NCBI GenBank assembly: GCA_900543305.1
Contig: UQQZ01000001.1
Span: 4,083 to 68,082, forward strand
Direction of reading: 5' to 3'
DNA length: 64,000 bases
From: an uncultured Oscillospiraceae bacterium
GTDB taxonomy: Bacteria > Bacillota > Clostridia > Oscillospirales > Acutalibacteraceae
Positions 23,373 through 56,481 of the stretch are shown here, one piece after another; within the stretch, counting starts at the first letter, position 1; each line of letters opens with the position of its first letter. Below the pieces are notes generated by a model. It saw only the letters and a list, made by a program, of their open reading frames with translations, did not search any database and was not told the DNA's origin. The translations under genes were made by a program, and so were the position numbers.

Positions 23373-23396
23373 GTTTGCATACAGCAAGTTTAATTT

Positions 23397-26270: not shown

Positions 26271-26325
26271 CTTGTTGCTCTCCTTCTACAGTGTGGTGAT
26301 TACAAAACCTTCACACTGGTTGGTT

Positions 26326-27824: not shown

Positions 27825-27854
27825 GACTATGCTCCTCAAATTCTACTTTTAAAT

Positions 27855-29060: not shown

Positions 29061-29067
29061 TTCATAA

Positions 29068-30030: not shown

Positions 30031-30038
30031 TATACCTC

Positions 30039-31784: not shown

Positions 31785-31867
31785 AACTAAATCTCCTCGC
31801 ATTAAGGTTACCCTTTTCCCAGAAAACCTTTTTATTTTTCTCTTGACACATCGCCACATTTCTATCA

Positions 31868-34443: not shown

Positions 34444-34456
34444 TTTTTATCACTCT

Positions 34457-36678: not shown

Positions 36679-36683
36679 AAGTC

Positions 36684-39010: not shown

Positions 39011-39021
39011 TCTTTCAATCC

Positions 39022-39870: not shown

Positions 39871-39888
39871 CGTTTTACTCCATTTCTT

Positions 39889-40491: not shown

Positions 40492-40493
40492 TC

Positions 40494-41147
40494 CTATACC
40501 TCCGCATTGTCTTTTGCTTCATCAGCTTCTGTTCCCATGAATTCCTCCATGGTTGCGGAGGTTTCAGAGTTGATTCCTTCTCGTTTCAATACCGTCCATA
40601 CTGTCTTAAAGATAATCTTCCAATCTCCAAGGAAAGTAATGTGATCAACATACTCCACGTCCAGATCAAATTTTTCTTCCCAACTAATGGCGTTTCTTCC
40701 ATTTACCTGCGCCAGCCCTGTAAATCCCGGTCTTACTTCATGCCTTCTCGCTTGATGTTCGTTATAAAGCGGGAGATACTTCACCAGGAGCGGCCGAGGT
40801 CCGCAAACCGCCATTCGTCCCGTTAGGATCGAGTACAATTCAGGCAGTTCATCCAAAGACGTAGAGCGCAACAATTTACCAAAAGACGTAAGGCGCTGCT
40901 CATCCGACAATAATTCACCGTTCTCATCTCGTTCATTGGTCATTGTCCGGAACTTATACAGCCTGAATATCTCGCCATGCAGTCCCGGTCTTTCCTGGGC
41001 AAACAGGACGGGGGAGCCAATCTTAATCTTTACAAGAATCGCAATCACCAGCATAACCGGGCTTAATACAATACACGCAAGCAATGCGCATAGAAAATCT
41101 TGAGGACGTTTTATATACTTTTCATAAAAACCCTTTTTATGCTCCAT
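40494..41147 (-). CDS. Small phosphoglycosyl (bacterial sugar) transferase, PglC/WbaP-C type; initiating enzyme
   Basis: SPVLFAQERPG ... YKFRTM ... DELPEL ... VCGPRP motifs. ATG 41147 is preferred over TTG 41171. Confidence 0.85.
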   Translation of the reverse strand: MEHKKGFYEKYIKRPQDFLCALLACIVLSPVMLVIAILVKIKIGSPVLFAQERPGLHGEIFRLYKFRTMTNERDENGELLSDEQRLTSFGKLLRSTSLDELPELYSILTGRMAVCGPRPLLVKYLPLYNEHQARRHEVRPGFTGLAQVNGRNAISWEEKFDLDVEYVDHITFLGDWKIIFKTVWTVLKREGINSETSATMEEFMGTEADEAKDNAEV

Positions 41148-41158
41148 ATCCAAATACC

Positions 41159-42427
41159 TTACATGAAACAACTCTTTATTATTTCAATAATCTTCTTCTG
41201 CTCATCGGCAGTCATCTTGTTATCGCTCGGCAGACACAGACCTCTTTCAAAGATATCCATACCTACATCCTCACTACCACCTTCGATATAGGCATTGGTT
41301 CTTGCTCTGCCGTTACCTTCACTTGTGATGAACGGATTCATACGGAAAAGTGGTTGTTCGTGCATCGGCTTCCAGATCGGACGACCTTCCGCATTGTACT
41401 TCGCCAGGGTTTCGAGAATCTCCGTTGGACAGCTCTTACCAGGTTCGCTGATGTAGAGTGCTTTCTGTTCTCCACGAACCTGCTGGCACATAGCGTCTTT
41501 GTCAATAATCATGCAGCTCAGCCAGAAGTTCGGTCCACTGTTCTTCTCATCGTAAGGATTCATCTGCACCGGAAGGTCTTTCAAACCTTCCTTGTAGCGC
41601 ATATAGATCGCTTTCTTCTGCGCAATGTGTTCTTCTAAATATGGAATCTGCCCACGCACAACTCCGGCGATCACATTGCTCATGCGGTAGTTATATCCCA
41701 GCTCCTCATGCTGATACCACGGGGCTGCTTCCCGACTTTGAGTTGACCACTTTCGTACCTTCTCGGCATCCGCCTTAGAATTAGTGAGGAACATTCCACC
41801 GGATGAACCAGTAATGATCTTGTTTCCATTGAAGCTGATGCAGCCGTAATCGCCAAAGCTGCCAGTTTCTTTTCCTTTATATGTAGCACCTAGGGATTCC
41901 GCTGCATCTTCAACAATCACAGCTCTGTGGGCAGTTGCTATCTTCTTAATTTCATCAATCTTGCCCGGTGTACCATACAGGTGAGCCACTACAATCACCT
42001 TGACATCTGGATAAATCTCAAATGCCTTTTCCAATGACACCGGGTCCATATTCCAAGTGTCACGCTCGGTATCAATAAAAACAGGGATACCGCCCTCATA
42101 GACAACCGGATTCACCGTGGCACCGAAAGTGACATCTGAACAGAATATTTTCTTATTACTCAGTGCTCCTTTTCCAATTTCCGGCTGACCATACATAGCT
42201 TCCCCGGCAAGCTTCATGGCAAGATGGAGAGATGCCGTTCCTGCCGATAATGCGACTGCATATCGTACCCCAACTCGTTCAGCAATCAATCGCTCTACTT
42301 CGTTAATATTCTTTCCTACCGTGGACATCCAGTTCGTTTCATAAGCTTCGGTAACGTACTTCAATTCGTCACCGTGCATTGTGGGCGATGACAGCCAAAT
42401 TTTGTGTTCAAACGGATTAATGTTCAT
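41159..42427 (-). CDS. DegT/DnrJ/EryC1/StrS-family sugar aminotransferase (PglE-like)
   Basis: Trimmed to the ATG at 42427. PLP-lysine region ISFNGNKIITGSSGG. Confidence 0.85.
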   Translation of the reverse strand: MNINPFEHKIWLSSPTMHGDELKYVTEAYETNWMSTVGKNINEVERLIAERVGVRYAVALSAGTASLHLAMKLAGEAMYGQPEIGKGALSNKKIFCSDVTFGATVNPVVYEGGIPVFIDTERDTWNMDPVSLEKAFEIYPDVKVIVVAHLYGTPGKIDEIKKIATAHRAVIVEDAAESLGATYKGKETGSFGDYGCISFNGNKIITGSSGGMFLTNSKADAEKVRKWSTQSREAAPWYQHEELGYNYRMSNVIAGVVRGQIPYLEEHIAQKKAIYMRYKEGLKDLPVQMNPYDEKNSGPNFWLSCMIIDKDAMCQQVRGEQKALYISEPGKSCPTEILETLAKYNAEGRPIWKPMHEQPLFRMNPFITSEGNGRARTNAYIEGGSEDVGMDIFERGLCLPSDNKMTADEQKKIIEIIKSCFM

Positions 42428-42735
42428 CTCTTCTTTTCTACCTTTCGCATTAAACATCATCTTAATTAACAGATTCACATCTGAGCTATAACACGACAAT
42501 TAGCCTAGAATGGCAAATAGCTCACCGCCTAACACGGCATGTGAGCTAAGTCAGTTTCCAAACCAATCAATGTCTGCCATTTCTTTAAGCGAAAACAAAA
42601 GAAATCGCTTCAATTAAAACAGGCTTAGACAAATGCCGTTTCAACAATCAATGTTTTAATTTCAGGCAATACCAAATCAATTCTTTCATACGAACGATTA
42701 CCTAAAATGGCATGAACAACACAAACAAAAAACTG

Positions 42736-44817
42736 TCAGCCCCCCACTACAACAGGAATTGTTTCTCTCACTTCCTTGGGAGCGAATGTACCTGTTTGAA
42801 GAGCTTTTGCGTTCACTTGTTCCGGAGAATGGAATGTGGGAACCACTTCTTTCAGTGCAATTCGAATAAAATCGTCGTCTTCTCTTATCAAAGCTCTCCG
42901 AAGTTTTTCCAGTTTCTCCTCGATTTTCTGCCGGGATAAGGGTTCATCCCGTTCCACAAAGATCATATTGTTATCAGTTTTTGTCAAAGTCTCCGTTTGA
43001 ATGAGCAGCTCCTCATAGAGTTTTTCACCGGGACGCAGGCCTGTTTCTATGATGTCTATATCCTGATAAGGCTCCATGCCACTTAGGCGGATCATGTTCT
43101 CGGCCAAATCAAGGATCTTCACTGGCCGTCCCATATCCAGAACAAAAAGTTCTCCGCTCTTGGCCATAGCACCGGAAGTCAGCACCAACTGGCTGGCCTC
43201 GGGAATCGTCATAAAGTAACGGATGATCCGCTTATCAGTCACCGTAACCGGACCTCCATTGGCGATCTGCCGCTTGAACAGAGGAATCACGCTGCCGTTG
43301 CTGCCCAGTACATTGCCAAAACGCGTGCAACTGAAGGAGGTACCTTTCTGCTCCGCCGCTCTGCTCAGAACGATCATTTCACACAGTCGTTTTGTAGCCC
43401 CCATCACATTGGTGGGGTTCACCGCTTTATCGGTGCTGATCATGATAAACTTTTCAACGCCATACTTTTCTGCGACATTGACCACATTCCAAGTGCCGAA
43501 CACATTGTTTTTCACGGCCTCCGAGCAGTTGTGTTCCATCAGGGGAACATGCTTATGGGCCGCAGCATGAAGTACCACCTGGGGACGATACGTACGAAAC
43601 ACCTTATCCAACTGTTCCGCATCACGAACACTGGCAATCTCCACTGCAAGATTGAGTGAGTCCCCATACACAAGGCGCAATTCTTGCTGGACATCGTATA
43701 CGTTATTCTCGTAGATATCCAACAATACCAGTTGTTTGGGGCCCATTCGTGCAATCTGCCGGCTCAGTTCAGAGCCAATAGACCCTCCCCCACCGGTAAC
43801 TAACACCACTTTATCCTTATAGTAAGACCGAGTGGCATCCCCAAGAAAATCCACTTCCTGTCGGAAAAGCAACTCTTCCACATCGAATTCCCGAATCTGT
43901 CTCTTGCCACTTGCTTCCGTATTCTCCACGGGGAAGGAATACACTTTGATTTTATAACCCATGGTTTTATAGCGGTTATAAAGCGAAGCTCTTTCATCGG
44001 GAGCTTTATTGACTGCAAAAACCACTTCCTGCACGGAAAGTCGATCCAACCGTTCCTTATTCACTTCGCCAGGTGAAAGCACATCAATCCCCATAACCTG
44101 CCGGCCAATTTTTTCCCGGTCCACATCGATAAAACAAACCGGTATGTAAACAGCATTAGGGTTACTGAGAAGTTCATCTGCCAACATGGCCCCAATGCGT
44201 CCAGCCCCCACGATGGCAATTCGGATCTTATTCTGCTTGGGCATTACACTGCTCAAAGCCTCGTGCATCAAGGAAATCCCCGTCAGGCCATACACAAGTG
44301 CATCGATTCCTTTTACCAGAATACTGGAACTGCCAAAAAAGTTTCGGGCCCAGCTGCTGCTGGTACAAATCTGGTAGAGCCAGGTATAGAGAAAACGAAG
44401 CATCATGGATCCCAAGAAGGCCAACATAACCATTCCCGCCGCCCGAAACAAAGTGGGATGTTCAAAGGGCATCAAAGTACGGATTACAAGATAGAGGATC
44501 CCTCCCAGAAAATCCGCACCAATCAGACGAAAATAGCTGTTGACACGACTGTATCGCCAGACCTGAGAATAGACCTTGCAAACATTCCGCATCACAAGAA
44601 GGCACACAGCTTCCAGAAAAAACTGAATGGCAGCCTCTCCCCAAGAAAGAGTAGCGCCCCCACGGGGGAATACAGTAAGAATAGGGAACGTCACGATCGC
44701 CAATACACAAAGATCATAAAACATGAGCTTTATTTTTCGGTTCCTGCTTCTTGCCTGTACCACTTCTCTTGAGGTCCCAACCGCTCGATCTTTTCTATTT
44801 CTGTTCATTTGCTTCAC
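42736..44817 (-). CDS. Membrane-anchored UDP-GlcNAc 4,6-dehydratase (CapD/PglF family)
   Basis: N-terminal TM helices, then VLVTGGGGSIGSEL and an SDR-extended domain. Confidence 0.85.
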   Translation of the reverse strand: MKQMNRNRKDRAVGTSREVVQARSRNRKIKLMFYDLCVLAIVTFPILTVFPRGGATLSWGEAAIQFFLEAVCLLVMRNVCKVYSQVWRYSRVNSYFRLIGADFLGGILYLVIRTLMPFEHPTLFRAAGMVMLAFLGSMMLRFLYTWLYQICTSSSWARNFFGSSSILVKGIDALVYGLTGISLMHEALSSVMPKQNKIRIAIVGAGRIGAMLADELLSNPNAVYIPVCFIDVDREKIGRQVMGIDVLSPGEVNKERLDRLSVQEVVFAVNKAPDERASLYNRYKTMGYKIKVYSFPVENTEASGKRQIREFDVEELLFRQEVDFLGDATRSYYKDKVVLVTGGGGSIGSELSRQIARMGPKQLVLLDIYENNVYDVQQELRLVYGDSLNLAVEIASVRDAEQLDKVFRTYRPQVVLHAAAHKHVPLMEHNCSEAVKNNVFGTWNVVNVAEKYGVEKFIMISTDKAVNPTNVMGATKRLCEMIVLSRAAEQKGTSFSCTRFGNVLGSNGSVIPLFKRQIANGGPVTVTDKRIIRYFMTIPEASQLVLTSGAMAKSGELFVLDMGRPVKILDLAENMIRLSGMEPYQDIDIIETGLRPGEKLYEELLIQTETLTKTDNNMIFVERDEPLSRQKIEEKLEKLRRALIREDDDFIRIALKEVVPTFHSPEQVNAKALQTGTFAPKEVRETIPVVVGG

Positions 44818-44883
44818 CTAATCCCCACGTTCCATCAAGCCAAACCTTACAAACGCTCCGGCAAAATCATCTAAAAACAGACA

Positions 44884-45363
44884 TCACTCGACCTTACTGG
44901 ATGAAAAAATATCTTGATCCGTCGTTTTCGACTTTCGCCTTCGCCTCCAAAAAGCCAATACCAAACACCCGACAGCAACCCCCGCCGCGTCCAGCACCAC
45001 ATCTTTTACCATGGCTGTTCTCGCGGTAAAAAGCTGGTGAAACTCGTCGCTAGCTGCAAATGCTGTTCCCAGGATCATAGCGCCGATCCAGGGAGGGATC
45101 TTTTTTTGCCAATGGAAGGTTCCCATTAACCCGAAACCCAGCAAAAAATAAAGTGTGAAATGAGCTCCTTTTCGCACAAAATAATCGAGCGTCTTCATAG
45201 CCTCGTCTCCGGGTTCCCACCCAAAAAGACCAGTTGCCCAACGGATCAACCCCTTGCTTAATTCCTGGGAAGTGGAACCGGACTGGCTGGAGAAGAGAAA
45301 TGCCAGCACAGCCGTTCCAACAGTCAAAAGAATAAACAGCACAAGGAGTCGTTTTTGCTTCAT
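44884..45363 (-). CDS. VanZ-family membrane protein
   Basis: FVRKGAHFTLYFLLG ... ASDEFHQLF ... DVVLDAAG motifs. Confidence 0.75.
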   Translation of the reverse strand: MKQKRLLVLFILLTVGTAVLAFLFSSQSGSTSQELSKGLIRWATGLFGWEPGDEAMKTLDYFVRKGAHFTLYFLLGFGLMGTFHWQKKIPPWIGAMILGTAFAASDEFHQLFTARTAMVKDVVLDAAGVAVGCLVLAFWRRRRKSKTTDQDIFSSSKVE

Positions 45364-45382
45364 GTTTCCCTCAATGGGCTTT

Positions 45383-46405
45383 TCAGCCTTCTCTCACAAA
45401 TTCATAGAACACATCCATCACTAGATCCTGCAAAGCCTGTTCATCGGGATAAAACTCCATGAATTCTTCTCCCACGGTTGCCTCTCCTTCCACGGTTCGG
45501 ATCTCTGAAATCTGATCCTTCCCGAGGCTCTCCCCAATTTGGGAGAGCTCTTCCACCGTGCAATCAGACACCATGTAATCATTCATTTGCAGAAGGGCAT
45601 TCAGGATAAATCCCCCATCCTCTCCCGCTTTGGAGGAAAGCTGTTCCTGTAGAGCGGACATGTATTGACGTTGACGCTCCATCCGGTGCAGGTTGGTGCT
45701 GTCTTCCAGGTTTCCACGAGCCCGGACATAGGTCAAAGCCTGTTCTCCACTGAGGGTTACAGTCTCTCCCTGAACCAGACTTGAATCCACCTGAGAAAAA
45801 TCGTCCATCACCTTCACCGTGACGCCTCCTACCAGATCATTGAGAATGGCGACTCCATCCATGGTCATGGATACATAATGATCAATGGTGATTCCATAGA
45901 GAAGTTTGGACACTGCTATTACCGTGTTTTCACAGCTGTCCTCTTCCCCGCTCCCGTAGGTGTGGGCCAGGGCAAGCTGTCCTGTAAAGGTGCCAGCCGG
46001 CTCTCCGGTTACCCCTAAAATTTGAATTTCCGTCATGGTATCCCGGTTCAGTTGGATGGGCGTACAGGTGCCAGCCTTCCGGTCCAGCACCAACAACAGC
46101 AAAAAGTCCGCTTGCTGATCGTTGAGGTAACCTTCCTGCTGAGCTCCCTCGTACTTATCTAGACCCAGAAGCAACACTGTCTCCAGATCTTCTCGCCGGG
46201 CATACCATGCGCCTTGATAGTAGGTGAGTTCCCGCTCTTCCTCCGAAGCAGAGGCGTTATCCGTTGAGACATCCTCAGGAACGGAAACCTGTCCTTGAGT
46301 CTGATCCCAACGCTGCAGCAGGAGCAATCCCACCAATATCACAAGTATTGCTGCCAGAAGTACCGCGATCCCTTTCAGCACACGGACATCCAAACGAATT
46401 TTCAT
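45383..46405 (-). CDS. LytR-CpsA-Psr (LCP) family glycopolymer ligase
   Basis: N-terminal TM segment. LLLGLDK ... ADFLLLLVLD ... IQLNRDTM LCP core. Confidence 0.8.
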   Translation of the reverse strand: MKIRLDVRVLKGIAVLLAAILVILVGLLLLQRWDQTQGQVSVPEDVSTDNASASEEERELTYYQGAWYARREDLETVLLLGLDKYEGAQQEGYLNDQQADFLLLLVLDRKAGTCTPIQLNRDTMTEIQILGVTGEPAGTFTGQLALAHTYGSGEEDSCENTVIAVSKLLYGITIDHYVSMTMDGVAILNDLVGGVTVKVMDDFSQVDSSLVQGETVTLSGEQALTYVRARGNLEDSTNLHRMERQRQYMSALQEQLSSKAGEDGGFILNALLQMNDYMVSDCTVEELSQIGESLGKDQISEIRTVEGEATVGEEFMEFYPDEQALQDLVMDVFYEFVREG

Positions 46406-46406
46406 C

Positions 46407-47195
46407 TCAGTTCTGAGAACGCTTTTTCCAAACCACCACAGCGCTGGTCACCGCAATGCAGCCCAGGGTAATGGCGCCCATGCCCAACGCAGGGAACATG
46501 TTGTTGTCCCCGGTCTGAGGAGAAGTGGGAGCATTGGCATCGGCGGAAACGCTGGTATCGGTCTCGGTCTTATCCACCACAAAGGCAATGGGAGACAGAC
46601 TGTCGAAGGTCACATCCACGGAACCATTAGCATTGCGCACTACCCGGTCATTCGAAATGACTTCCCAGTTGGACCCCTCGTAGTTGTGGAGCACCAGCAG
46701 GGTGGCGGTGGGAGCCAGGTTCAAAGAGAATCGGATGGTGATATTGTTGCCTTCCTGTGCCAGGAACTCAGCGGCATCCCCATCCAAGGATACGTCGAAC
46801 ACATCACGGACTACCAAATCTTCCACATTGGCTGTGCTGCCCATCTGCTGTAGGATACCAGCAAGATCCACATCGGGAACCAGATCCGCAATAGTCTCTG
46901 CCTGCTGGATCTGTTCAAATGCGTTGGAAAGCATCTCACTGATTTGTTCCGCTGCCTGAGCCAGGGCAGAAATAGGAGTCACAATCAATTGGCTTGCATC
47001 TATGCCGGCCACCTGGTTGCCGTTTGCGTCCCGGATGATCGCGGAAACCTGATTACCGTTGTCATCGGTCATGGTTTCCACAGTAGGAGCAGGCTTCTGC
47101 TCCACGCTGTTCACAAAATCCACCGCCGCGGAGGCAGGAATGGCCAGCGTGACGAACATCATCACTACGACGAGTAATAAAGCGAGCTTTTTCAT
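46407..47195 (-). CDS. Cell-wall-anchored surface protein with an SPQTG sorting signal
   Basis: Signal peptide MKKLALLLVVVMMFVTLAIPASA. C-terminus reads APTSPQTGDNN, then a hydrophobic helix, then KKRSQN. Confidence 0.8.
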   Translation of the reverse strand: MKKLALLLVVVMMFVTLAIPASAAVDFVNSVEQKPAPTVETMTDDNGNQVSAIIRDANGNQVAGIDASQLIVTPISALAQAAEQISEMLSNAFEQIQQAETIADLVPDVDLAGILQQMGSTANVEDLVVRDVFDVSLDGDAAEFLAQEGNNITIRFSLNLAPTATLLVLHNYEGSNWEVISNDRVVRNANGSVDVTFDSLSPIAFVVDKTETDTSVSADANAPTSPQTGDNNMFPALGMGAITLGCIAVTSAVVVWKKRSQN

Positions 47196-47224
47196 GGGAA
47201 TTCATCCTTTCCTATTTGGGGAGA

Positions 47225-48019
47225 TTAATCTATCACAGTCTGGCAAACCGCCAGAACTAGATATCGTTTTTGAGAATTGCCTGCCAAACAGGTTGACAGA
47301 ACCAAAATTTTATCCTCAGCGGAAACGGTAACCGAATCGCTAAACTGAGCACCAATTTCCCTAACTTCATACACACTGTTTAAAAACGCAGTGACCCGTC
47401 GGGGATCGGAACTATCGTAGTTGTAAAGAATATGGCGGTTGTCATAGGGAACAGCAGCAAACACTCTATAATGCAGCTCCCTCTCCGGCAGGTAGACTAC
47501 AATCTCTCCGTAATCCTCCAGGGCACTTTCCTGAGAGTAGGTCTCCTGGAGCTTTCCAAACATGGTTCCCGCGTGCATCTGATGGCCATAGGCCACCGTA
47601 ATGGGATCTTCCATGGTAGTGGTATTGTAGGTGCTTTCGGTAAAGATAGCTCCGGCAGAGCTTTCATTGCCGTCACTGTCGTGAGTCAGATAGAAGGCAT
47701 CGTCCCCTTCCCGCTGGACCAGAGGGAAATCAAACTCCGTTCCTGGGATCCGCAGCCAACCGTAAATATCCGGGTTGGTGGCTTGAAGAGATGCAAAATC
47801 AATGGGGCTGACATACGGTTCTTCCTGAGAGGAGGTCTCCTGAGAAGAGGCTGCAGACTCCGATTCGGGCTGTGGAGTGGGATCCTGAGAAACAGAAGGA
47901 ACGGGATCCGGATCCGCTGTCTCCGGCTTCTCTCCTCCGCCCTGCAGAAGCATCACCCCGCAAACCACACAGAGCACACCTAACACTCCAATCAGTATCG
48001 CCAGGGTTCGCTTTTTCAT
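47225..48019 (-). CDS. srtB: Class B sortase
   Basis: Trimmed to the ATG at 48019 (ATGA overlap with the cpsB stop). N-terminal TM segment, YGHQMHAGTMFGKL (His), VLSTC (Cys) and KRYLVLAV (Arg). Confidence 0.8.
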   Translation of the reverse strand: MKKRTLAILIGVLGVLCVVCGVMLLQGGGEKPETADPDPVPSVSQDPTPQPESESAASSQETSSQEEPYVSPIDFASLQATNPDIYGWLRIPGTEFDFPLVQREGDDAFYLTHDSDGNESSAGAIFTESTYNTTTMEDPITVAYGHQMHAGTMFGKLQETYSQESALEDYGEIVVYLPERELHYRVFAAVPYDNRHILYNYDSSDPRRVTAFLNSVYEVREIGAQFSDSVTVSAEDKILVLSTCLAGNSQKRYLVLAVCQTVID

Positions 48020-48720
48020 GGAGCACTCCCAGCTTTCAGCAGTTCCACGGTGCGGCGTTGGAAATTCCGCAAAGCGTCCCTGCCCAGGGATTTCTCTATT
48101 ACTTCCATAGCATCTCCCAACCGAGGGGGCCTTGTAGTCATATTGTGTGCATCTGAACCTAACATATGGATCTCTCCCTTCTGGAGCATCCGAAGAGCTT
48201 TCCGCTTCGTTCTCCAGGACAGGAAGAAGGAAGCATTGCATTGCATCCAAACACCGGACCGTTGCAAGGTGCGGATCACCTGCTTGGATTGGGCGCTCCA
48301 ATACCGCTCCACATGGGCCAAAAGGACTTGGGTTTCTTTGTGGCTCTGAATCTCCAGAACCTCGTCTACCATCCGTTTACTCCAGGTACAAAAGGGCATT
48401 TCCAACAGCAACACGGGGGATCCCTCCAGTCTGAGGAAATCCAACTCCTCCGTCCGGGACATACCTTCGAAATACCTGACCTCCGCTCCCAAGACGATCT
48501 TGGGAAATCCCGGCTTTAACCGGCTGCGCAATGCTTCCACCGAAACTCTCCTGCGGCGAAGAAACTGGGAGGGAGTTTGTTCCGTGGCGTAAAAATGGGG
48601 CGTGGCTACCATCCATTTCACTCCTTGACGGGCAGAAGCTTCCAGCATCTGCAAACTCTCTGCCACATTGCGGCTGCCGTCATCCAATCCCGGTAAAATA
48701 TGAGAATGTAGATCAATCAT
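48016..48720 (-). CDS. CpsB/CapC-type PHP-domain protein-tyrosine phosphatase
   Basis: MIDLHSHILPGLDDGS N-terminal motif ... GSDAHN. Confidence 0.85.
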   Translation of the reverse strand: MIDLHSHILPGLDDGSRNVAESLQMLEASARQGVKWMVATPHFYATEQTPSQFLRRRRVSVEALRSRLKPGFPKIVLGAEVRYFEGMSRTEELDFLRLEGSPVLLLEMPFCTWSKRMVDEVLEIQSHKETQVLLAHVERYWSAQSKQVIRTLQRSGVWMQCNASFFLSWRTKRKALRMLQKGEIHMLGSDAHNMTTRPPRLGDAMEVIEKSLGRDALRNFQRRTVELLKAGSAP

Positions 48721-49520
48721 GAATTCGTTGTCTCTTGTTTCTGCTTGTTTTCCCTGTTTTCTTGGTTGTTACCATACCCATAGCCATACTCATACCCATA
48801 GCCGTACTGCTTATAGTACCGTTTGTAATACCGCTTCCGGCCTGTCTCTGCCCCGTTGACGCCGGTCATGACAAATCCCAGAATCTTGGCATCTACAAAT
48901 CGAAGCTGCCGCACGGCTTCCGCCAAGGCTCGGCGGTTACTATAATTTTGCCGGACTACCAAAATCATTCCGTCCACCAGCTTCGAGACCACCAAGGGAT
49001 CCGAAACCGCATTGACCGGCGGTAGATCCAACAGAATGAAATCAAAATCTTTGCACAACACATCCATGGTAATGCGCATTTGCTCGGAACCCAACAGCTC
49101 CGAAGGATTGGGAGGAATATCCCCCGCAGTAATCACCCACAAATTTTTATGCAAACCAGACTTTTGCAAGACTTCCGCGCCGTTGCACTGACCTGCCAAA
49201 AGATTGGAAATTCCCTTGGTGTTGGATAAATTCAACCGCTTGGACAAGGTGGGAAGACGCATGTCTCCTTCCACCACCAATACATACTTGCCGGTTTCTG
49301 CAATGGAATAGGCAAGATTCAGCGTGGTGGTGCTCTTTCCCTCACCACGCACCGAACTGGTTACGCCAACCACCCGGCAGCCTTGACCTTCCGCCAGGGC
49401 AAATTCCAAATTGGTACGGAGCAACTTGTAGGCTTCTGAGGCGGCAAAATTCAGGCGGTCGCCGATCATGACGCCATACTCCTGACTGGAAAGCTCCGCC
49501 ATCTTCTTTTTCTTATTCAT
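48717..49520 (-). CDS. CpsD/CapB-type BY-kinase (tyrosine autokinase)
   Basis: Walker A SSVRGEGKST, Walker A' VVEGDMR, Walker B ILLDLPP. The C-terminal Tyr cluster reads YYKRYYKQYGYGYEYGYGYG. Confidence 0.9.
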   Translation of the reverse strand: MNKKKKMAELSSQEYGVMIGDRLNFAASEAYKLLRTNLEFALAEGQGCRVVGVTSSVRGEGKSTTTLNLAYSIAETGKYVLVVEGDMRLPTLSKRLNLSNTKGISNLLAGQCNGAEVLQKSGLHKNLWVITAGDIPPNPSELLGSEQMRITMDVLCKDFDFILLDLPPVNAVSDPLVVSKLVDGMILVVRQNYSNRRALAEAVRQLRFVDAKILGFVMTGVNGAETGRKRYYKRYYKQYGYGYEYGYGYGNNQENRENKQKQETTNS

Positions 49521-50284
49521 GGATTCTCCCCCTTCCCCGCTGCGCTATTACCGCTATCCCGGTAATAATTCTCCCGGCTCTTGGAAAGTAAGTCGGGCAC
49601 AGCGGCCAACAAGGGCAGATCGAAGGTTTCCCGGACATAATCTTCATCTCGGATCTGTTCATCAAAAAGCTCGAATAGGATGATCACACCGCAGCTGATC
49701 ACGGCGCCCAAGAGCAAACCAATCATGGTATACCGGGAAATACTGGGAGAAGACTTGTGGGAAGGAACCACGGCGTAATCCACAATCTTCGCGGAGCTCC
49801 CGTCGATAATCTGAGAAATCCGCTCTGGCAATAGATCCGCAATGGTGTTGGCAAGCTTTTCCGCTTCCTGTGGATCGGCACTTGTCACCTGAATTTCAAA
49901 TACCTCTGTAGAGTTGACAGCTCCGGCAGTAATCATTCCCGAAAGCTGTTCATATGTATAGGGAACATCTGCCGCCTCAATAACCTCTTCCAAGGTGCCC
50001 CGGGTTTTCAAAATCACCAGGTAGGTTTCCACCAAGCTTTGGGCAGCGTTCAAGTCACTTAAATCCACCTGAGTACTGCCCACGGAAACGGAACTGTTAT
50101 TTACATACATCATGGCGCTGGCCTGATACAGAGGCGTAACAAGAAAGTAGGCGTAAGAAAACGCTGCGCCGCCACAAATAATCATGGCCAACACAATCGC
50201 CCACGCCCGCCGCCACAGAGCCTTCGCCAGTTGCACCAGGTCTATCACCATCACATCGTCTTTTTCTCTTACGGGTTTCTCCAC
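49517..50284 (-). CDS. CpsC/Wzz-type chain-length determinant and kinase modulator
   Basis: Two TM segments flank a Wzz-like loop. It overlaps the kinase start. Confidence 0.8.
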   Translation of the reverse strand: MEKPVREKDDVMVIDLVQLAKALWRRAWAIVLAMIICGGAAFSYAYFLVTPLYQASAMMYVNNSSVSVGSTQVDLSDLNAAQSLVETYLVILKTRGTLEEVIEAADVPYTYEQLSGMITAGAVNSTEVFEIQVTSADPQEAEKLANTIADLLPERISQIIDGSSAKIVDYAVVPSHKSSPSISRYTMIGLLLGAVISCGVIILFELFDEQIRDEDYVRETFDLPLLAAVPDLLSKSRENYYRDSGNSAAGKGENP

Positions 50285-50329
50285 TGGATCTTCTCCTTTT
50301 CAGTTCTCCGGTTCATAACATCCTATCCG

Positions 50330-51199
50330 TTAAAAAGCACTGGGATAATTTTCCGCACAGTAAGTTTCTTCTTTCCAATCCGTGCTCATTTGCTCGTCTT
50401 CTAACAGCTTGTCATAAGTTTGATCCACCAGCTCCGCCAGGTTGGCCAGGATTTTTTCCCTTGTGGCAGAATACAGCTTGTGAAGGTACCGAGGGTTGCA
50501 TTTCTCCGGCTCCACCTTGGCGTCCAAGGACAAGCTTTGAATTAGCTCAGTCACCACAGTCCGGCGAATGGGCTTCCCATTCCGGCCCAGGAATACGGGG
50601 CCTTCCCGCAATCCCGACTGACGGATATAGTCCATCAATTCCTTCTGAACACAGGGAGAAATACGGATCGTCCGCTTTACTCCACTGGGATATACCACCA
50701 AATAGCCAGCGACTACTGCTTCTACCGTTAAGCTGGGAAGCTCCTGCACCGTAAGGCCTGTTGTAGCAAAGATCTTTACCAAAAGATAGGCCCGTTTTTT
50801 CCCCAAGGACCGCGCTGCAGATAACAGCCGAAGATATTCCCCCCGAGACAATTCCCGAGGCGTCTCCTCTGCTCCCACAGGCAGTTGGGTGGTGGACTGA
50901 AACTCTCGCAAACCCACAAACTCCAGAAACCCATTGACAGATGAACAAAGCAAATTGACCGTTCGAGGCATATATCCCTGTTCCAACAGGTCGCCCTGAA
51001 AACGGTCCATATCTCCTTTGCAGAGAACCTTGTCTTCTGGCAGCCAAGCAAAAAACTTGGTCAGACCTCTTTGGTAGCTGTCGATGGTCCCTGGTGAATA
51101 CTTTCGGGAAACCAACTCATCCAGATAAGATTGCACACTTTCCCAGGTAATGCGACTTTCATCCCCATTGAACTCTGGACCAGATACCGGGTCTTCCAC
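50330..51199 (-). CDS. Tyrosine-recombinase-like protein with a degenerate catalytic set
   Basis: Trimmed to the GTG at 51199, 6 nt after GAGGAGAGG. It aligns along its length with the 51554..52399 product, but TGIR is replaced by TGLT and HNLRH by PRYLH. Confidence 0.65.
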   Translation of the reverse strand: MEDPVSGPEFNGDESRITWESVQSYLDELVSRKYSPGTIDSYQRGLTKFFAWLPEDKVLCKGDMDRFQGDLLEQGYMPRTVNLLCSSVNGFLEFVGLREFQSTTQLPVGAEETPRELSRGEYLRLLSAARSLGKKRAYLLVKIFATTGLTVQELPSLTVEAVVAGYLVVYPSGVKRTIRISPCVQKELMDYIRQSGLREGPVFLGRNGKPIRRTVVTELIQSLSLDAKVEPEKCNPRYLHKLYSATREKILANLAELVDQTYDKLLEDEQMSTDWKEETYCAENYPSAF

Positions 51200-51222
51200 T
51201 GCAATCCTCTCCTCAAGTTTAT

Positions 51223-51242
51223 GACAATATTTACATATTGTC
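51223..51242. promoter_or_regulatory. Perfect palindrome GACAATAT-ttac-ATATTGTC immediately upstream of the recombinase-like/cps operon start
   Basis: Read directly from the sequence. It lies about 25-45 nt upstream of the GTG at 51199 and overlaps a weak -10-like CAATAT. Confidence 0.4.
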
Positions 51243-51269
51243 TTATTTATCGTAATAGTAAAACTGGCA

Positions 51270-51329
51270 TCTCCCTTTAAAAAATAAAATAAATGCCCAT
51301 ATTCTCCTAAATTTAGAAAAATATGGGCA
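51270..51329 (-). terminator. Terminator/attenuator-like hairpin in the leader of the cps operon
   Basis: 10-bp arms TGCCCATATT (51294..51303) and AATATGGGCA (51320..51329). They are followed on the minus strand by TTTATTTTATTTTTT. Confidence 0.5.
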
Positions 51330-51338
51330 AAGTAATTA

Positions 51339-51374
51339 GGCCGAAGAGAAAAAATTGCCTCTTTCGGCTTTTTT
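51339..51374 (+). terminator. Plus-strand-oriented intrinsic terminator-like hairpin
   Basis: GGCCGAAGAG ... CTCTTTCGGC (one bulged T) followed by TTTTTT. No plus-strand gene lies upstream of it. Confidence 0.45.
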
Positions 51375-51420
51375 GGCGTGCTCTGATAATAATTTTCACT
51401 TGCTCTTTTTGGGGTAGTAT

Positions 51421-51457
51421 GATAAAATATAAAAGCCGGTAGCGAAAAAATCGGCTT
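51421..51457 (-). terminator. Possible terminator downstream of the tyrosine recombinase gene
   Basis: On the minus strand, AAGCCG-13 nt-CGGCTT followed by TTATATTTTAT. Confidence 0.4.
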
Positions 51458-51553
51458 ATAGGAAGCTAAACCTGACAATTTGTAAATTTTGTTCTATTTA
51501 TTGTGCCAATGAATCCTTGGCTTTTTTCGTTATCACAGGCTCCCCCACAATTC

Positions 51554-52399
51554 TTACAGAACCAGTCTTAATCGCTCCAGGGTATAAGCGTGTTCCGCGC
51601 CTGTGGAGATCAGATAAATGCGGGTGGTTTCCATGCTGGAATGTCCCAGAACATCTGCCAGCTTGGCAACGTCGGGACAGACCTTATAAAAGATTCTGGC
51701 AAACAAGTGACGAAGATTGTGGGGAAACACCTTGGATGCCGCTACCCCAGCCTTGCTACAGAGAGCTTTCATCTGTGCCCAAATCTGTTTCCGGGAAAGA
51801 CTCGTTCCGTTTCTGGTGAGAAAGATCTCCCCAGAGACGGTTTTTTGTTTCTTGGCGTATTGCAGCAATTTCTTCCGCAATTTTCCAGGAATCAAAATGG
51901 TGCGAATTTTTCCTTTGAGAGAGATCTCTGCCCGCCCCTGGTTCAAGGCCTCCACAGTGATATACTTGACCTCGGACACCCGGATACCCGTCCCGCAGAT
52001 CGTCTCCATCAGAAGCACCAAGCGCTCCTGTCCCAATGTCTTTGCAGTGTGCAGCAGGCGGTTGTATTCCCCTCGGGTCAACTCCTTGTTGTCATCCCGG
52101 AACAGTCTTCTTTGCAGGCGCAATGTCTTCACGCGGTATTCTCGCCACCCCATGAAATCAAAAAATCGGTTGATGGATACCACCATGGAATTGATGGTTC
52201 CCGGACAATAATTTTTGGAAAGCAGATGTTCTTTCCAGGCTGCCGCCCGTTCTTTGGACACTTCTTGGTCCCCAAGCCAAAGGGCAAACTCCCGAACATG
52301 ACGCAAATAATTCTCAATGGTCCCTGAGCTTCGCTCGTCCTCCTGTAAATGCCGGCAAAAGGCCTGGATCTCTGTAGATGTGATACAATGGTCATTCAT
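51554..52399 (-). CDS. Tyrosine site-specific recombinase (XerC/XerD-like) with an intact catalytic set
   Basis: SAM-like N-domain (SGTIENYLRHVREF). Catalytic residues are GTGIRVSE (Arg), KGKIRT (Lys), HNLRH (His-x-x-Arg) and GHSSMETTRIYL (His, Tyr). Confidence 0.85.
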   Translation of the reverse strand: MNDHCITSTEIQAFCRHLQEDERSSGTIENYLRHVREFALWLGDQEVSKERAAAWKEHLLSKNYCPGTINSMVVSINRFFDFMGWREYRVKTLRLQRRLFRDDNKELTRGEYNRLLHTAKTLGQERLVLLMETICGTGIRVSEVKYITVEALNQGRAEISLKGKIRTILIPGKLRKKLLQYAKKQKTVSGEIFLTRNGTSLSRKQIWAQMKALCSKAGVAASKVFPHNLRHLFARIFYKVCPDVAKLADVLGHSSMETTRIYLISTGAEHAYTLERLRLVL

Positions 52400-52575
52400 A
52401 CAATTTTCCTCTCTCCATTAAAGTACCATTATTTTTCCACATTCCCATCAGGCTATGCCCTGTCCTCTTTCTTTCCAATGGGCGAATTTTAATTTTTTCT
52501 GAATATTTTAATATGACACTCACCTTCTCTGGAAGGATGTGGTATAATTCTACATCATATCCCCTTTAGGAGGCT

Positions 52576-53061
52576 TTGTCCATGACCCGATCCCGAAAAA
52601 TTGCGGCGGGGATCCTGCTGTTTCTGCTGCTGTGCAATCTTTGCTTCATCTGGGGCAACTCCTTGGCCAGCAAGGACAGCTCTCACAACATGAGTATGAA
52701 TGTGCTGGATGTTCTCCCGGCCTTTATCCAACAGCTTTTCTCCAATGTGGAACAACTGGAACATATCGTCCGCAAACTGGCCCATTTTTCCGAGTTCGCC
52801 TGTCTGGGGGGACTGGGGTGTGGATTGCTCATCGTCTTCCAAAAAGTTTCTCTCCACCCGGTAGTTCATTTGCTTTCCGGCGGATTTTTGGCAGCATCCA
52901 TCGACGAAACCATTCAAATCTTTTCCCATCGGGGGTCTCAGCTGCAGGATGTGTGGCTGGACTTTTCCGGTTTCCTGGTGGGTACGGGCATTGTCTTGGG
53001 GATCTACGCCCTTGGGCATTTCCTGGGAAAACAAACAGATCAACATTCCCCGGCCGCGTAA
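52576..53061 (+). CDS. VanZ-family membrane protein
   Basis: KLAHFSEFACLG ... SIDETIQIF ... WLDFSGFLVG. Extended -10 TGGTATAAT at about 52540..52548. Confidence 0.75.
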   Translation: MSMTRSRKIAAGILLFLLLCNLCFIWGNSLASKDSSHNMSMNVLDVLPAFIQQLFSNVEQLEHIVRKLAHFSEFACLGGLGCGLLIVFQKVSLHPVVHLLSGGFLAASIDETIQIFSHRGSQLQDVWLDFSGFLVGTGIVLGIYALGHFLGKQTDQHSPAA

Positions 53062-53123
53062 ACATTTCCTGCCTTCCAAAAAATATCAATTTGCTTCCCA
53101 AGCCCAATGATCCTGAGCTAAGG

Positions 53124-53162
53124 AAACACCGCCTTTTCATCCGATGAAGGCGGTGTTTTTTG
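53124..53162 (+). terminator. Rho-independent terminator of the VanZ gene
   Basis: CACCGCCTT ... AAGGCGGTG stem followed by TTTTTT. Confidence 0.8.
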
Positions 53163-53591
53163 TATACTATTATATTATATATTATGGCGTCTTCGGAAAC
53201 GTGCAGGGTTCGGCCACCGGTTAACGGGAATTTTAGAGGCCAGCAGAAGGGTTATTCCAGAAGCAACAATCGCCAGGAAATCTTTTTTCCAATGGGGATT
53301 CCACTCATTCCGAAGAAGGGTCCCTCTTGGGTGCAAATAGGACAAGATTCCAAACGACATTTTTATTTTCTCACTTTCATACCAATGCACAGGGGTGATA
53401 CGTTTGGAAAACGCACAAAAAGACTTGATCCGTGTCCTACTGGAGCACCTTTGCTCCCAAGGACTCATTTCAACCGCCATCTGCTCTCAGGCAGCAGATT
53501 GGATAGATTCTCATGGAGATTTCCCTCCGTTTTTCCGGTATCCTGAGAACTCCACAAAGGAGGTAACCATTCGAAGGAGGTAACTAGTGGA

Positions 53592-55215
53592 ATGAACGTG
53601 CTTAAAATCCGCAACGAATTGCGCAATGGAAAAACCATTTTTGACCTGCCTCTCCGGGTGACCTTTTACGCTCGTGTCTCTACGGAAAAGGATGAACAGC
53701 TCAACAGCCTGGAAAATCAGGTTCAATACTACACCGAGCTGATCCAATCAAAACCCAACTGGACCTATGTTCCGGGGTACATTGACGAAGGCATCAGCGG
53801 CACCAGTACAAAAAAACGAGACAGTTTTCTCCGGATGATCGAAGACGCCAAGAAGGGCCTCTTCGATTTCATTATCACCAAGGAAATCTCCCGTTTTTCC
53901 AGATCCACTTTGGACAGCATCCAGTACACCCAGGAGCTGCTGGAACACGACGTGGGGGTCCTGTTCCAAAACGACAACATCAACACCCTGGACGGAGACA
54001 GCGAATTCCGGTTGGTGGTCATGGCCGGAGTGGCCCAGGATGAGGTGAGGAAGCTTTCGGAACGGCTGAAATTCGGATTCCGGCAAGCCATCAAAAACGG
54101 CCATGTATTGGGAAACGACAAGCTGTGGGGATACAATAAAAAAGACTGCGTCCTCACCATCAACGAGGCGGAGGCCGCCGTGGTTCGCCGGATTTTCGAC
54201 CTGTACGCCAACCAGAAAATGGGCATCCGGCGCATCTCCCAACAACTTTACGACGAAGGGTATACCAGCCGGATGGGCAACGCCTTCAATGTTGCCACCA
54301 TCCGACACATTTTGGAAAATCCCAAATACAAGGGCTGGTTCTGCGCCGGAAAAACCCAGACGGTGGATTACCGCAGCAAACGGAAGATAGTCCTGGACGA
54401 AAGCGAGTGGATCACCTACCCGGATCCTTCCATCCCAGCCATCGTCTCCGAGGAACTATGGGACCGGGCCAACGCCCTTTACAAGCTTCGGAGCAAGCAG
54501 TGCATGTCCCACCAGCACGGAGCCGATTACCATCACCGCTATCCCTACAGCAGCAAAATCTTCTGCGAGGTCCACAACGCCACCTACCACCGGGCAACAT
54601 CTCGGGGATCCCGGGACAAAAAGGAAATCTGGCAGTGCCAAGTCTACCACAAACGCGGCAGAGCCGGTTGTTCTTCCCCCTTGATCCGTTCCACAGAGCT
54701 GGACCAAATCCTGGCAAGTATTTTTGACCAGCTGATCCTCTCCAAAGAGGCTGTCGTGGATCAAGTGATTCAGGTGATTCAAGCGGTCCCCCATACGCGG
54801 AACTATCAGCGGGACGCCTCCCGGATTGAAGGGGAAATCACTTCCATTCAGGGGAAAAAGGACCGGATCCTGGAAATGAGCATTGACGGCACTCTTCCCC
54901 ACGAAGAATTCAAACTGCGCAACGATGCCTTCAACCGGCAAATCCAGGACCTGGAAAAGCAGCTGGAGACACTGAAAAAGGAAGAGGAAAAAAGTAGAAT
55001 GACCCCGGAACAGCTGGAGAAAATGCGGCTCTCCCTGACACGGGTTCTCTCCCATGAAGACGGTATCTCCTCTGCCCTGGTCACCTCGATCCTAGATCAC
55101 ATTTTGGTCAAAAAAAACAGCACCAAACAGGTGCTGGAACTGGAGATCCACTTAAAATTTGGGAACCCTTGGGAGGTTTATTACCAGCGAAACGAGGGTT
55201 CCCTTCGCTTTCAGC
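53592..55215. mobile_element. Right end of a sigK-intervening (skin-like) element; left boundary not identified in this window
   Basis: A serine recombinase gene points at and abuts the breakpoint of an interrupted sigK. Confidence 0.5.
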
Positions 55216-55358
55216 CTTTTTTATTATGTGCGCCACAAGACGCAAATTGTGTTCCACAAGTTTCTGTCTGGCGGCTTCACTCCCTTGGGCCATTTCTTCC
55301 AGACAGAGTTTTTCCTCGGCGGCGGAAAGGGCTTTGGGAAAGGTTCCCCCGCCGGTAA
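53592..55358 (+). CDS. Large serine recombinase (SpoIVCA-like; resolvase, recombinase and zinc-ribbon domains plus a coiled coil)
   Basis: FYARVSTEKDEQLNSLENQ (catalytic Ser), ISRFSRS, recombinase-domain motifs, and Cys pairs (CEVH...C..C). The last 47 or so codons run antisense through the sigK fragment. Confidence 0.85.
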   Translation: MNVLKIRNELRNGKTIFDLPLRVTFYARVSTEKDEQLNSLENQVQYYTELIQSKPNWTYVPGYIDEGISGTSTKKRDSFLRMIEDAKKGLFDFIITKEISRFSRSTLDSIQYTQELLEHDVGVLFQNDNINTLDGDSEFRLVVMAGVAQDEVRKLSERLKFGFRQAIKNGHVLGNDKLWGYNKKDCVLTINEAEAAVVRRIFDLYANQKMGIRRISQQLYDEGYTSRMGNAFNVATIRHILENPKYKGWFCAGKTQTVDYRSKRKIVLDESEWITYPDPSIPAIVSEELWDRANALYKLRSKQCMSHQHGADYHHRYPYSSKIFCEVHNATYHRATSRGSRDKKEIWQCQVYHKRGRAGCSSPLIRSTELDQILASIFDQLILSKEAVVDQVIQVIQAVPHTRNYQRDASRIEGEITSIQGKKDRILEMSIDGTLPHEEFKLRNDAFNRQIQDLEKQLETLKKEEEKSRMTPEQLEKMRLSLTRVLSHEDGISSALVTSILDHILVKKNSTKQVLELEIHLKFGNPWEVYYQRNEGSLRFQPFLLCAPQDANCVPQVSVWRLHSLGPFLPDRVFPRRRKGLWERFPRR

Positions 55359-55413
55359 CATGGAGAAATAAAAACAGAACGTGGGAGAACAGTTCCATGA
55401 GCTGTGTGAACAT
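55216..55413 (-). pseudogene. sigK: 5' segment of an interrupted sigma-K gene (spoIVCB-like: pro-sequence plus regions 1.2/2.1)
   Basis: MFTQLMELFSHVLFLFLHVTGGGTFPKALSAAEEKLCLEEMAQGSEAARQKLVEHNLRLVAHIIKK aligns with the pro-sigma-K N-terminus (...FPQPLSSSEEKKYL...ARNMLIEHNLRLVAHIVKKF). Similarity stops after KK, at about 55216. Confidence 0.8.
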
Positions 55414-55545
55414 AGAGGACCACTTCCCTTCTAAAATGTGTTTCATATATATGGAGCAGTTTCCTCCGTCGTGCCAGTACACCTACAAAAGGGGACGGCT
55501 TCCCTTTGAAGCCGTCCCCATCTTCCTTTTCTTTTCCTTGATCAA

Positions 55546-56253
55546 TCAGTGACCAGAGGGTTTGCGAAACAGCAAATCCTTTTCATCGGTCAGGTCCGCA
55601 TGGACCAAACGCACCAAGACAATCCCTAAGGGAATCAGGTTCAGCCAGATAGCTTTGGCATACAGTGCATGCCCCACCACCGTGGAGAGAACCCCTCCGG
55701 AAAAGAAGCACCCCAGCATGCCCAGAAAAAACAGCGCCCGGTCCCGGGCCTGCCGATCTTTCTTCCGAATGGCCTTGGCAAAAGAGATCCCCACCTGACG
55801 CAATTGGTTGGTACAAAACGTGGTGGCCATGGGAATTCCCTCCGCTTGGCGGAAGGTATTATACTGCATGGAAGCAATAAAATTCACCAGCACCTGCACC
55901 AGGTGATTGGGCCAACTGAGGGGAATAAAACCAATGATAAACAGAGAAATCACTTCAAAAGCTACCAGATAAGTATCCCATCGGAGAAATCCGAACCGCC
56001 GCATGGGAGAAGGAAGAATTTCAGATAAAAAAGCTCCGGCCAAATAAGCGGTGATGGGAATCAGATAATATCCTCCTCCCAGCCAATCTCCCTTGCCGAA
56101 AGCAATTGCCATCAAGACAATATTGGCGGTGTGCGCGTTACAAAATACCCCGCCCCGGAGATTGAAGGTATAGGCACCCATCATCCCTGCACTGAAGGTC
56201 AACAGCGCGAACACACTTCTCTTTTCACAAACCAGATATTTCTTCTCTTCCAT
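55546..56253 (-). CDS. YoaK/DUF1275-family membrane protein
   Basis: FALLTFSAGMMGAYTF ... ANIVLM pattern with 6 TM helices. ATG 56253 is preferred over 56289. Confidence 0.7.
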   Translation of the reverse strand: MEEKKYLVCEKRSVFALLTFSAGMMGAYTFNLRGGVFCNAHTANIVLMAIAFGKGDWLGGGYYLIPITAYLAGAFLSEILPSPMRRFGFLRWDTYLVAFEVISLFIIGFIPLSWPNHLVQVLVNFIASMQYNTFRQAEGIPMATTFCTNQLRQVGISFAKAIRKKDRQARDRALFFLGMLGCFFSGGVLSTVVGHALYAKAIWLNLIPLGIVLVRLVHADLTDEKDLLFRKPSGH

Positions 56254-56481
56254 AGCATTCCCTGCCTTGCCGATGTTTTTCAAATCCACGTCGCATTATA
56301 TACCTAAAACGATAAAATAGCAACTTTCTGCTAACAGGAAATCCCTCGAATCGATTTCAGAAACCGCCTGCCCAGTCCCGTTCCCATTCGGCCGGGCATG
56401 CTACTAAACTCTCTTAAACTTTGTCTTAGATTTCATCTGTTCGGGCATACTAAGTCTATCCTTAAAAAGGAGGGCTTGGGC

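Follow-up and report, generated by a model that had tools for sequence, protein, structure and literature searches.

The rebuilding of a split sigK gene by a serine recombinase is a textbook developmental DNA rearrangement, known for the most part from Bacillus and from a small number of Clostridium species. In the case of B. subtilis, a 64-aa directionality factor, Skr, is encoded upstream of the recombinase gene spoIVCA (PMC6957869), and in C. difficile the directionality factor CD1234 has 72 aa (PMC5025042). Here we have analyzed 64 kb of DNA (hereafter the window) from contig UQQZ01000001.1 of an uncultured Oscillospiraceae bacterium, a Clostridia species of the human gut with Clostridium sp. 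CAG:1013 and Acutalibacter as its nearest relatives by sigK. In the window lies attL, the recombinase-proximal end of a skin-type sigK-intervening element, where a 5' fragment of sigK (k5) meets the gene of a large serine recombinase (LSR), and sequence comparison indicates that the locus is a rearranged one, with the attL module separated from the native sigK flanks, rather than the product of a simple insertion. In this species sigK must be rejoined over a long distance, if it is still rejoined at all, and we lean modestly toward a switch that still works, with a distant partner made of attR and the sigK 3' half (k3).

The sigK fragment lies on the minus strand, within the open reading frame (ORF) 55108-55482, which from the ATG at 55413 reads MFTQLMELFSHVLFLFLHVTGGGTFPKALSAAEEKLCLEEMAQGSEAARQKLVEHNLRLVAHIIKK and then continues with unrelated residues. 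Similarity to the intact orthologues breaks after codon 66, at the boundary Lys66|Tyr67 (HIIKK|YY). In tblastn searches, a B. subtilis SigK query gave a sole match in the window (55419-55201, aa 3-74, E 2e-14), and the intact SigK of the closest relative matched only 55413-55192 (aa 4-77, E 2e-33; the runner-up had E 1.6). At the DNA level, homology to intact sigK genes extends from 55431 down to exactly 55216, and down to 55212 in the comparison with the related locus L006. Against NCBIfam, the 66 residues score 62.8 bits with the SigK model TIGR02846 (model positions 3-67 of 227) and 31-34 bits with SigE models, the former value being below the curated cut-off for a full-length SigK (298.65 bits). 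Judged by its sequence, k5 is thus a fragment of a SigK gene and not a SigK protein, and the sigK coding sequence is interrupted here in the manner of skin-type elements. An original prediction, made from the letters of the window alone, had proposed a pro-sigma-K N-terminus that ends abruptly after NLRLVAHIIKK, and both its identity as sigK and its end point are borne out by these alignments. In a protein search with the 66-residue N-terminus all homologues were truncated, with no full-length protein among the matches listed, and they form two classes, broken either after HIIKK (site A) or after ...CIEN, at about residue 115 (site B); the latter may correspond to the sigK site of B. subtilis.

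The DNA upstream of the start codon has been kept together with k5. A ribosome-binding site (RBS) and a CATA(G/C/T)A(C/T/G)AT box are found at equal distance from the start codon in L012, L013, L006 and L094, the relatives carrying CATAGACAT or CATACAGAT where the window has its RBS and -10-like box (Table 1). A promoter role of this box is probable.

Converging on the break is the LSR gene, situated at the end of the element that adjoins the att site, as in skin-type elements. Its product has the three Pfam domains of the class (Resolvase PF00239, Recombinase PF07508 and Zn_ribbon_recom PF13408) and an N-terminal YARVSTEKDEQ motif at residues 26-36. The convergence of a SpoIVCA-like recombinase on this very point had been foreseen, but the ORF does not end there: it crosses the junction and overruns the sigK break by 143 nt (47 codons), antisense to k5. 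All 16 database variants at least 98% identical to this LSR have 588 aa and are free of frameshifts, and relatives at ~70-76% identity number in the thousands in gut metagenomes. No SpoIVCA-specific NCBIfam model matched the protein, the CcrC, CcrB and XisF models matched only below threshold, and identity to any GenBank phage integrase is 40% or less. As an observation on its own, the integrated ORF acquires its 47 C-terminal residues from antisense sigK (55216-55358, + strand); the C-terminal length of LSR relatives (542-593 aa) is set by the sequence beyond the junction, and within the species the 47-residue tail evolves in its own frame like non-coding sequence.

Directly upstream of the LSR gene lies a 62-aa ORF without a Pfam or NCBIfam family match. 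Its homologues (30-49% identity) are found immediately upstream of the sampled LSR relatives (L006-11, L061, L113, L115, L116, L121 and L237), which span both orientation classes described below. Since its size and place match those of skr, and its size that of CD1234, we consider it a candidate recombination directionality factor (RDF).

Alignment of the junction with those of relatives carrying the element in the same orientation (L006, L061, L117, L118) or the opposite one (L113-116, L119/120, L227, L237) defined attL in the window, CACATAATAAAAAAG|GCTGAAAGCGAAGGGAAC, as the mirror image of the attR arm in relatives. The attR junctions of three species read GTTCCC-N(19-20)-AA(A/G)|TATTAC, and the att arms mirror each other (GTTCCC...GGGAAC). 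In intact genes, the sigK target site is a near-perfect palindrome, CATAATA-AAAAAG-TATTATG, so that only its central bases can set the polarity of insertion. The delimitation of both att sites, foreseen by the earlier reading, has been reached for attL of this species, the attR arms being seen in relatives only. The attR of this species would be expected to have an arm like GTTCCCTT...AAAAAG|TATTAY, and a rebuilt sigK would carry the junction GTGGCGCACATAATAAAAAAG|TATTAYGC.

In related gut species, LSRs 68-73% identical to that of the window sit at this codon of sigK, some in one orientation and some in the other. The convergent arrangement (k5>|<LSR) is that of the window, L006-11, L061 and L117/118. 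In the opposite arrangement (LSR>|k3>; L113-116, L119/120, L227 and L237) the LSR reads straight into the 3' half, which it abuts in L227 and L237, and LSRs of equal relatedness (55-72%) are also found in this class. One LSR family targets a single palindromic sigK site in many related gut species, in either orientation; some of these relatives sit on IMG/VR contigs. In a sister species (the P0123 species; L006 and L093), both halves of sigK flank the element together with attL and attR. The end of L006 is shared with L093 (97.8% over 540 nt), which carries on into the 3' half, so that this element measures 11.25 kb, and its order is TIGR04076 gene > k5 | < LSR (542 aa, 73% identical) < 64-aa ORF, followed by a cargo of Ser/Thr kinase, FHA, PP2C, AP endonuclease, GH43 and Fe-ADH genes. 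The skin-type interpretation of the window, already put forward in the original prediction, is supported by these orthologous LSRs at the same codon and from a close relative flanked by both sigK halves.

A separate case is that of L113 (9818-10294; IMG/VR UViG_3300010163_002043), where sigK is interrupted twice in one gene. There the LSR reads into ...|KKYYTQNVDQ...ARCIENAIL|, after which similarity stops again, leaving a 50-codon middle piece of sigK between a site-A and a site-B element.

The rearrangement is apparent from the genes that adjoin sigK in relatives (genes a and d, Table 1). Orthologues of gene a (tblastx and tblastn, 56-65% aa identity) lie in L012, L013, L006 and L094-96, always 70-140 nt upstream of sigK. 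In L012, L092 and L094, sigK or its 3' half is followed by a gene with 83% aa identity to gene d, and in L097 the 3' half is followed by a DUF1275 member of greater divergence. The complete order a>sigK>d is found in Clostridium sp. CAG:1013 (L012) and L094-96, with d some 60 nt downstream of the intact gene, while gene a also precedes sigK in L013 and L006, and k3>d is seen in L092 and L097. Among 85 related loci, only a small clade has genes a and d as sigK neighbors. In the window, by comparison, gene a stands 46 kb to the left of k5 on the plus strand, followed by k5 and gene d on the minus strand, and d has come to lie directly upstream of k5, with 77 nt between its terminator and the sigK start. 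Both flanking genes are present, displaced and inverted, in agreement with the earlier suggestion of a rearranged locus. No single inversion that we considered turns the canonical layout into this one: flipping the split gene as a whole accounts for where a lies and for d being adjacent, but leaves both the orientation of d and the missing 3' half unexplained. A 3'-half remnant beside gene a (8929-9277) or upstream of gene d (56254-56397) was considered and discarded, neither six-frame translation nor tblastn finding any.

Table 1. Main features of the 64-kb window (positions are those of the window)
Feature	Position	Strand	Description	Basis
k5, sigK 5' fragment	55216..55413	-	pro-sigma-K codons 1-66, MFTQLMELF...NLRLVAHIIKK	tblastn, TIGR02846, ortholog alignment
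Upstream region kept with k5	55414..55490	-	RBS GAAGGGAAGTGG, 55420-55431; -10-like box CATATATAT, 55445-55453	
attL	55198..55240		element-side arm GTTCCCTTCGCTTTCAGC, 55198-55215; A/T core CTTTTTT, 55216-55222; sigK-side arm ATTATGTGCGCCAC	junction alignment
Large serine recombinase (LSR) gene	53592..55358	+	588 aa; core 53592-55215; last 47 codons read through into antisense k5	
62-aa ORF, candidate RDF	53395..53583	+	directly upstream of LSR; stops 9 nt before LSR start	
Gene d, DUF1275/YoaK family	55546..56289	-	directly upstream of k5; terminator hairpin 55491-55519	Pfam DUF1275
Gene a, TIGR04076 family	8659..8928	+	46 kb from k5, opposite strand	NCBIfam TIGR04076
Intervening DNA	8929..53394	.	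44.5 kb between displaced upstream flank (gene a) and LSR module	Pfam, PADLOC, composition
SngA	20755-22665	-		PADLOC, E 1e-82
SngB	19437-20834	-		PADLOC, E 9e-190
SngC	17182-19440	-		PADLOC, E 3e-280

The 3' half was sought well beyond the window, which corresponds to positions 4083-68082 of the same-species ERZ28620492 scaffold_101 (107.7 kb), with the junction at 59298. With L105 and L099, this scaffold was read from 1 to 77440, that is, from the left contig end, 4 kb beyond the window, to 18.1 kb right of attL, 9.4 kb beyond it. In agreement with the earlier statement that none is visible in the 55 kb to the left, tblastn found no sigK 3' half on either strand of the window, and neither a 3' half nor a matching attR is present in positions 1-77440 of the scaffold (59 kb left and 18 kb right of the junction). 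There is no attR-like arm in 8929..53394 either. When the C-terminal half of CAG:1013 SigK was compared with 5.8 billion proteins (90%-cluster representatives, best 120 matches), no intact SigK with an N-terminus more than 85% identical to k5 was retrieved. Four 3'-fragment clusters, all from other species, were among the matches listed, and their members included one more split species and none assignable to that of the window. In a protein-guided metagenome scan, none of the best 80 loci overlapped the known 77 kb, the split loci among them (L197, L227, L237) belonging to other species. A search for the attR pattern GTTCCC...AARTAYTAY... in metagenome and viral collections gave 0 matches with what is probably too strict a pattern, and no close relative of the region was found in plasmid and phage collections. 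As the protein search covers 90%-cluster representatives and its best 120 matches, and the nucleotide scans the matches listed, these database negatives are weak.

Two other places for the missing half were considered and rejected. A minimal element, composed of the 62-aa ORF and the LSR gene with attR in 53062-53394, is contradicted by that interval, which holds only a VanZ terminator and an AT-rich spacer, without att arm or sigK. An element-borne spare 3' half had been conceivable from the many database SigK proteins that combine an identical C-terminus with unrelated N-termini, switching at HIIKK|YY. We judge these to be metagenome assembly chimeras, since the same C-termini are also joined to SigE N-termini and at other break points. 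Such chimeric sigma factors (P0286-P0292, P0306, P0320, P0322, P0336, P0344, P0355, P0377 and P0397 in the metagenome protein collection) switch in conserved stretches and could mislead surveys of intact versus split sigK.

A comparison with a second strain (L098), which has the same rearranged layout and 97.3% nucleotide identity over 20.4 kb, allowed us to follow the module after the rearrangement. The LSR core shows 43 synonymous and 8 nonsynonymous changes (synonymous divergence, dS, 0.13), and its ratio of nonsynonymous to synonymous divergence (dN/dS) of 0.05 compares with 0.06 for the DUF1275 gene, 0.30 for DAO and 0.13 for thioredoxin. In k5 there are 2 synonymous changes and 1 nonsynonymous change, and no indel or stop codon. 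Read in the LSR read-through frame that overlaps k5, each of these three changes is nonsynonymous, so that k5 is the constrained frame, small as the numbers are. No other intergenic DNA in 20 kb is as well conserved as the spacer between k5 and the DUF1275 gene, whose 132 nt contain a single change (99.2% identity; elsewhere between genes, 94-96%). With respect to the relatives, k5 has an identity of 80-83%, in line with its neighbors a (56-63%) and d (83%), and it therefore gives no sign of accelerated decay. These figures show that since the rearrangement the LSR has been under strong purifying selection and that k5 and its promoter-like region have been conserved, and such selection on the recombinase would be hard to explain were its only partner site gone. 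At least seven independent assemblies agree exactly over the d-k5-LSR region, and 13 contigs carry the nearby thiE protein; the TIGR04076-VanZ-aldo-keto reductase side is seen in L105, with 3 more similar places.

From the purifying selection on the LSR and the conservation of k5 and its promoter region in two strains sharing the layout, a switch that still works, through a distant attR-sigK 3' partner, is to us somewhat more credible than a relic. In the model that we propose, the small protein would be made in the mother cell during sporulation and would switch the LSR to attL x attR recombination, so that the LSR would join attL to the distant attR and 3' half and rebuild sigK. With the att sites in direct orientation, the outcome would be the excision of a segment of at least 59 kb; with one site flipped by an inversion, the DNA between them would be inverted. 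Either outcome could be tolerated, since the mother cell is terminally differentiated and does not pass on its chromosome. In this regard, the sigK LSR CD1231 inverts DNA between opposed att sites in E. coli (PMC5025042). A more detailed version, in which one end point of an inversion fell within the element, so that attL has been turned around with respect to attR, and sigK is rebuilt by a programmed inversion or by an excision of 60 kb to several hundred kb, is put forward only tentatively. If the long-range rejoining is real, the excised segment would include housekeeping-like genes instead of being a compact element, and the two parts of a split sporulation gene could freely move away from each other along the chromosome, the mother cell being terminal.

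Several points weigh against a working switch. No 3' half or attR of this species appeared in the window, in the 77 kb of the contig or among the protein and metagenome matches listed; every simple rearrangement path that we drew needs at least two events and puts the 3' half beside gene a or gene d, and it is absent from both places, as a deletion would leave them; and the selection signal on k5 comprises three substitutions only. The first two of these, together with the lack of an intact sigK of the species among the protein matches listed, although the split form recurs in many samples, speak for a relic, in which rearrangements deleted the 3' half and attR. The species would then have no sigma-K and probably form no spores, and the module would be an undecayed leftover, unless the LSR is kept for some other role. 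What this explanation does not account for easily is the state of the module itself: the 43 synonymous changes with a dN/dS of 0.05 accumulated between strains that already shared the rearranged layout, the 16 variants have no frameshifts, k5 carries no stop codon or indel, and the upstream spacer, with RBS and -10 box intact, is unusually conserved, while the absence from the protein search, with its cluster representatives and best matches, counts for little. We therefore regard the relic as a serious explanation that is nonetheless unlikely. The decayed relic of the original prediction is thus disfavored by the selection on the LSR and by the conserved k5 and promoter region, while the missing 3' half speaks for it.

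The same source had raised an unusually large element with capsule and defense cargo. As a simple giant element, this would be one colinear insertion of more than 59 kb, carrying the capsule locus and the Shango system, with the 3' half just past the left contig end and the positions of the TIGR04076 and DUF1275 genes unrelated to the insertion. The contig does end on the left at 59 kb from attL, a length of 48 kb is known for the skin element of B. subtilis, and cargo is highly variable and can look chromosomal, as in L092, with sugar-metabolism genes up to attR, or in L006, with kinase, phosphatase and GH43 genes. However, gene a, the orthologue of the conserved upstream neighbor of sigK, would be lying inside the supposed element, inverted, and the downstream neighbor d lies upstream of k5; as both genes adjoin sigK only in a small clade, their placement by coincidence is unlikely. 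With the native upstream flank at the far end of the cargo, and neither 3' half nor attR there, the simple colinear insertion is not supported and we think it improbable. Finally, a chimeric contig joining the 5' end of sigK to unrelated DNA is scarcely credible, for although metagenome assemblies do yield chimeric sigK, such as SigK C-termini preceded by SigE N-termini, the independent assemblies and the 97.3% strain all have the same DUF1275-k5-LSR junctions, and the layout is not a product of misassembly.

The DNA between the displaced upstream flank and the recombinase encodes VanZ, aldo-keto reductase, cupin, CMD and flavodoxin proteins, the Shango defense system, PGM/PMM, UDP-glucose dehydrogenase, a low-GC capsule locus, two tyrosine recombinases and a second VanZ, and there are no phage structural or replication genes among the annotated genes of 8.9-53.4 kb. 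The Shango anti-phage system is complete (17182-22665, - strand). The capsule locus, of ~23 kb and with a G+C content down to 30-35% (25035-50284, - strand), is headed by the two adjacent tyrosine recombinases (50330-52399, - strand), of which that at 51554-52399 is XerA/XerD-like, with 20 synonymous and 0 nonsynonymous changes between strains, and that at 50330-51199 is degenerate. Three VanZ-like paralogues, one at each end of the 44.5-kb intervening DNA (9278-9772, + strand; 52576-53061, + strand) and one within the capsule locus (44884-45363, - strand), share no DNA-level repeat. Recent homologous recombination between these paralogues or other repeats was considered as the cause of an inversion and rejected, because no repeats of 30 nt or more link the break points. 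In several metagenome contigs of the species, the break falls on the start of the LSR gene or a short way to its left (53082-53448).

Outside this region, the left edge of the window (121-2946, - strand) has a SipW-like signal-peptidase gene and a TasA/camelysin-like gene, then a surface protein in which PEDPDN is encoded by an extended array of 9/18-nt tandem repeats, and sortase genes lie just past the edge (L105). Beside the DUF1275 gene, a tocopherol-cyclase-like gene (56482-57327, + strand) differs between strains in 6 synonymous and 22 nonsynonymous codons and has a 125-nt indel in L102, which suggests relaxed constraint or a pseudogene in the making.

The present locus adds to the picture of split sigK a single LSR family with a conserved small partner ORF, acting at one palindromic sigK site in many uncultured gut Oscillospirales, in both orientations, sometimes together with a second interruption of the same gene. 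One species at least has had the half with the recombinase moved away from the native locus, with the LSR still strongly constrained by selection. Should the partner half exist, the species would be a test of the distance and the relative orientation that the parts of such a switch allow; should it be absent, the locus is a dated example of sporulation loss in a gut lineage. The att sites and their LSRs are also candidate orthogonal integrase tools.

Comparison with the described systems places the window element among them. The B. subtilis skin element (attL-skr-spoIVCA-attR) has in common with it an LSR gene at one end of an element that interrupts sigK, an ORF of about 60 aa directly upstream of the LSR (PMC6957869), a cargo dispensable for the switch and a sigma-K whose N-terminal region, in the window, is pro-sequence-like. 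The window differs in the insertion point, after residue 66 (HIIKK|YY), in an LSR without a match to a SpoIVCA-specific model, generic LSR models matching only below their cut-offs, and in that the two halves are not both at the locus. In the case of C. difficile, skinCd (CD1231 as LSR, CD1234 as RDF) is likewise a clostridial sigK-intervening element with an LSR, its RDF is small, acidic and expressed in the mother cell, and its LSR can invert DNA between opposed sites (PMC5025042). It differs as an independent insertion at another site, with a sigma-K lacking a pro-sequence, an RDF gene that does not adjoin the LSR gene in this way, and both halves flanking a compact element. Closest of all is the sister-species element, with an orthologous LSR (73% aa and 79% nt identity), a homologous small ORF and the same codon and orientation, which differs in its canonical layout (TIGR04076 gene > k5 | 11.25-kb element | k3) and in a quite different cargo. 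The gin element in gerE of B. cereus and SPbeta in spsM also have a sporulation gene rebuilt by serine-recombinase excision, and show that the element need not be a prophage, with other target genes and with both halves adjoining the element (PMC5595907, PMC4191935). Distant restoration of a developmental gene has a precedent in Calothrix NIES-4101, where nif fragments are reported to lie far apart on opposite strands and their restoration to need inversions as well as excisions (PMC11249958); this is a cyanobacterial heterocyst system with other genes. The window element belongs with the known sporulation-gene-intervening elements that carry a serine-integrase recombination unit, and it differs from the described members in its insertion site, its LSR lineage, its non-phage cargo and its dislocated halves.

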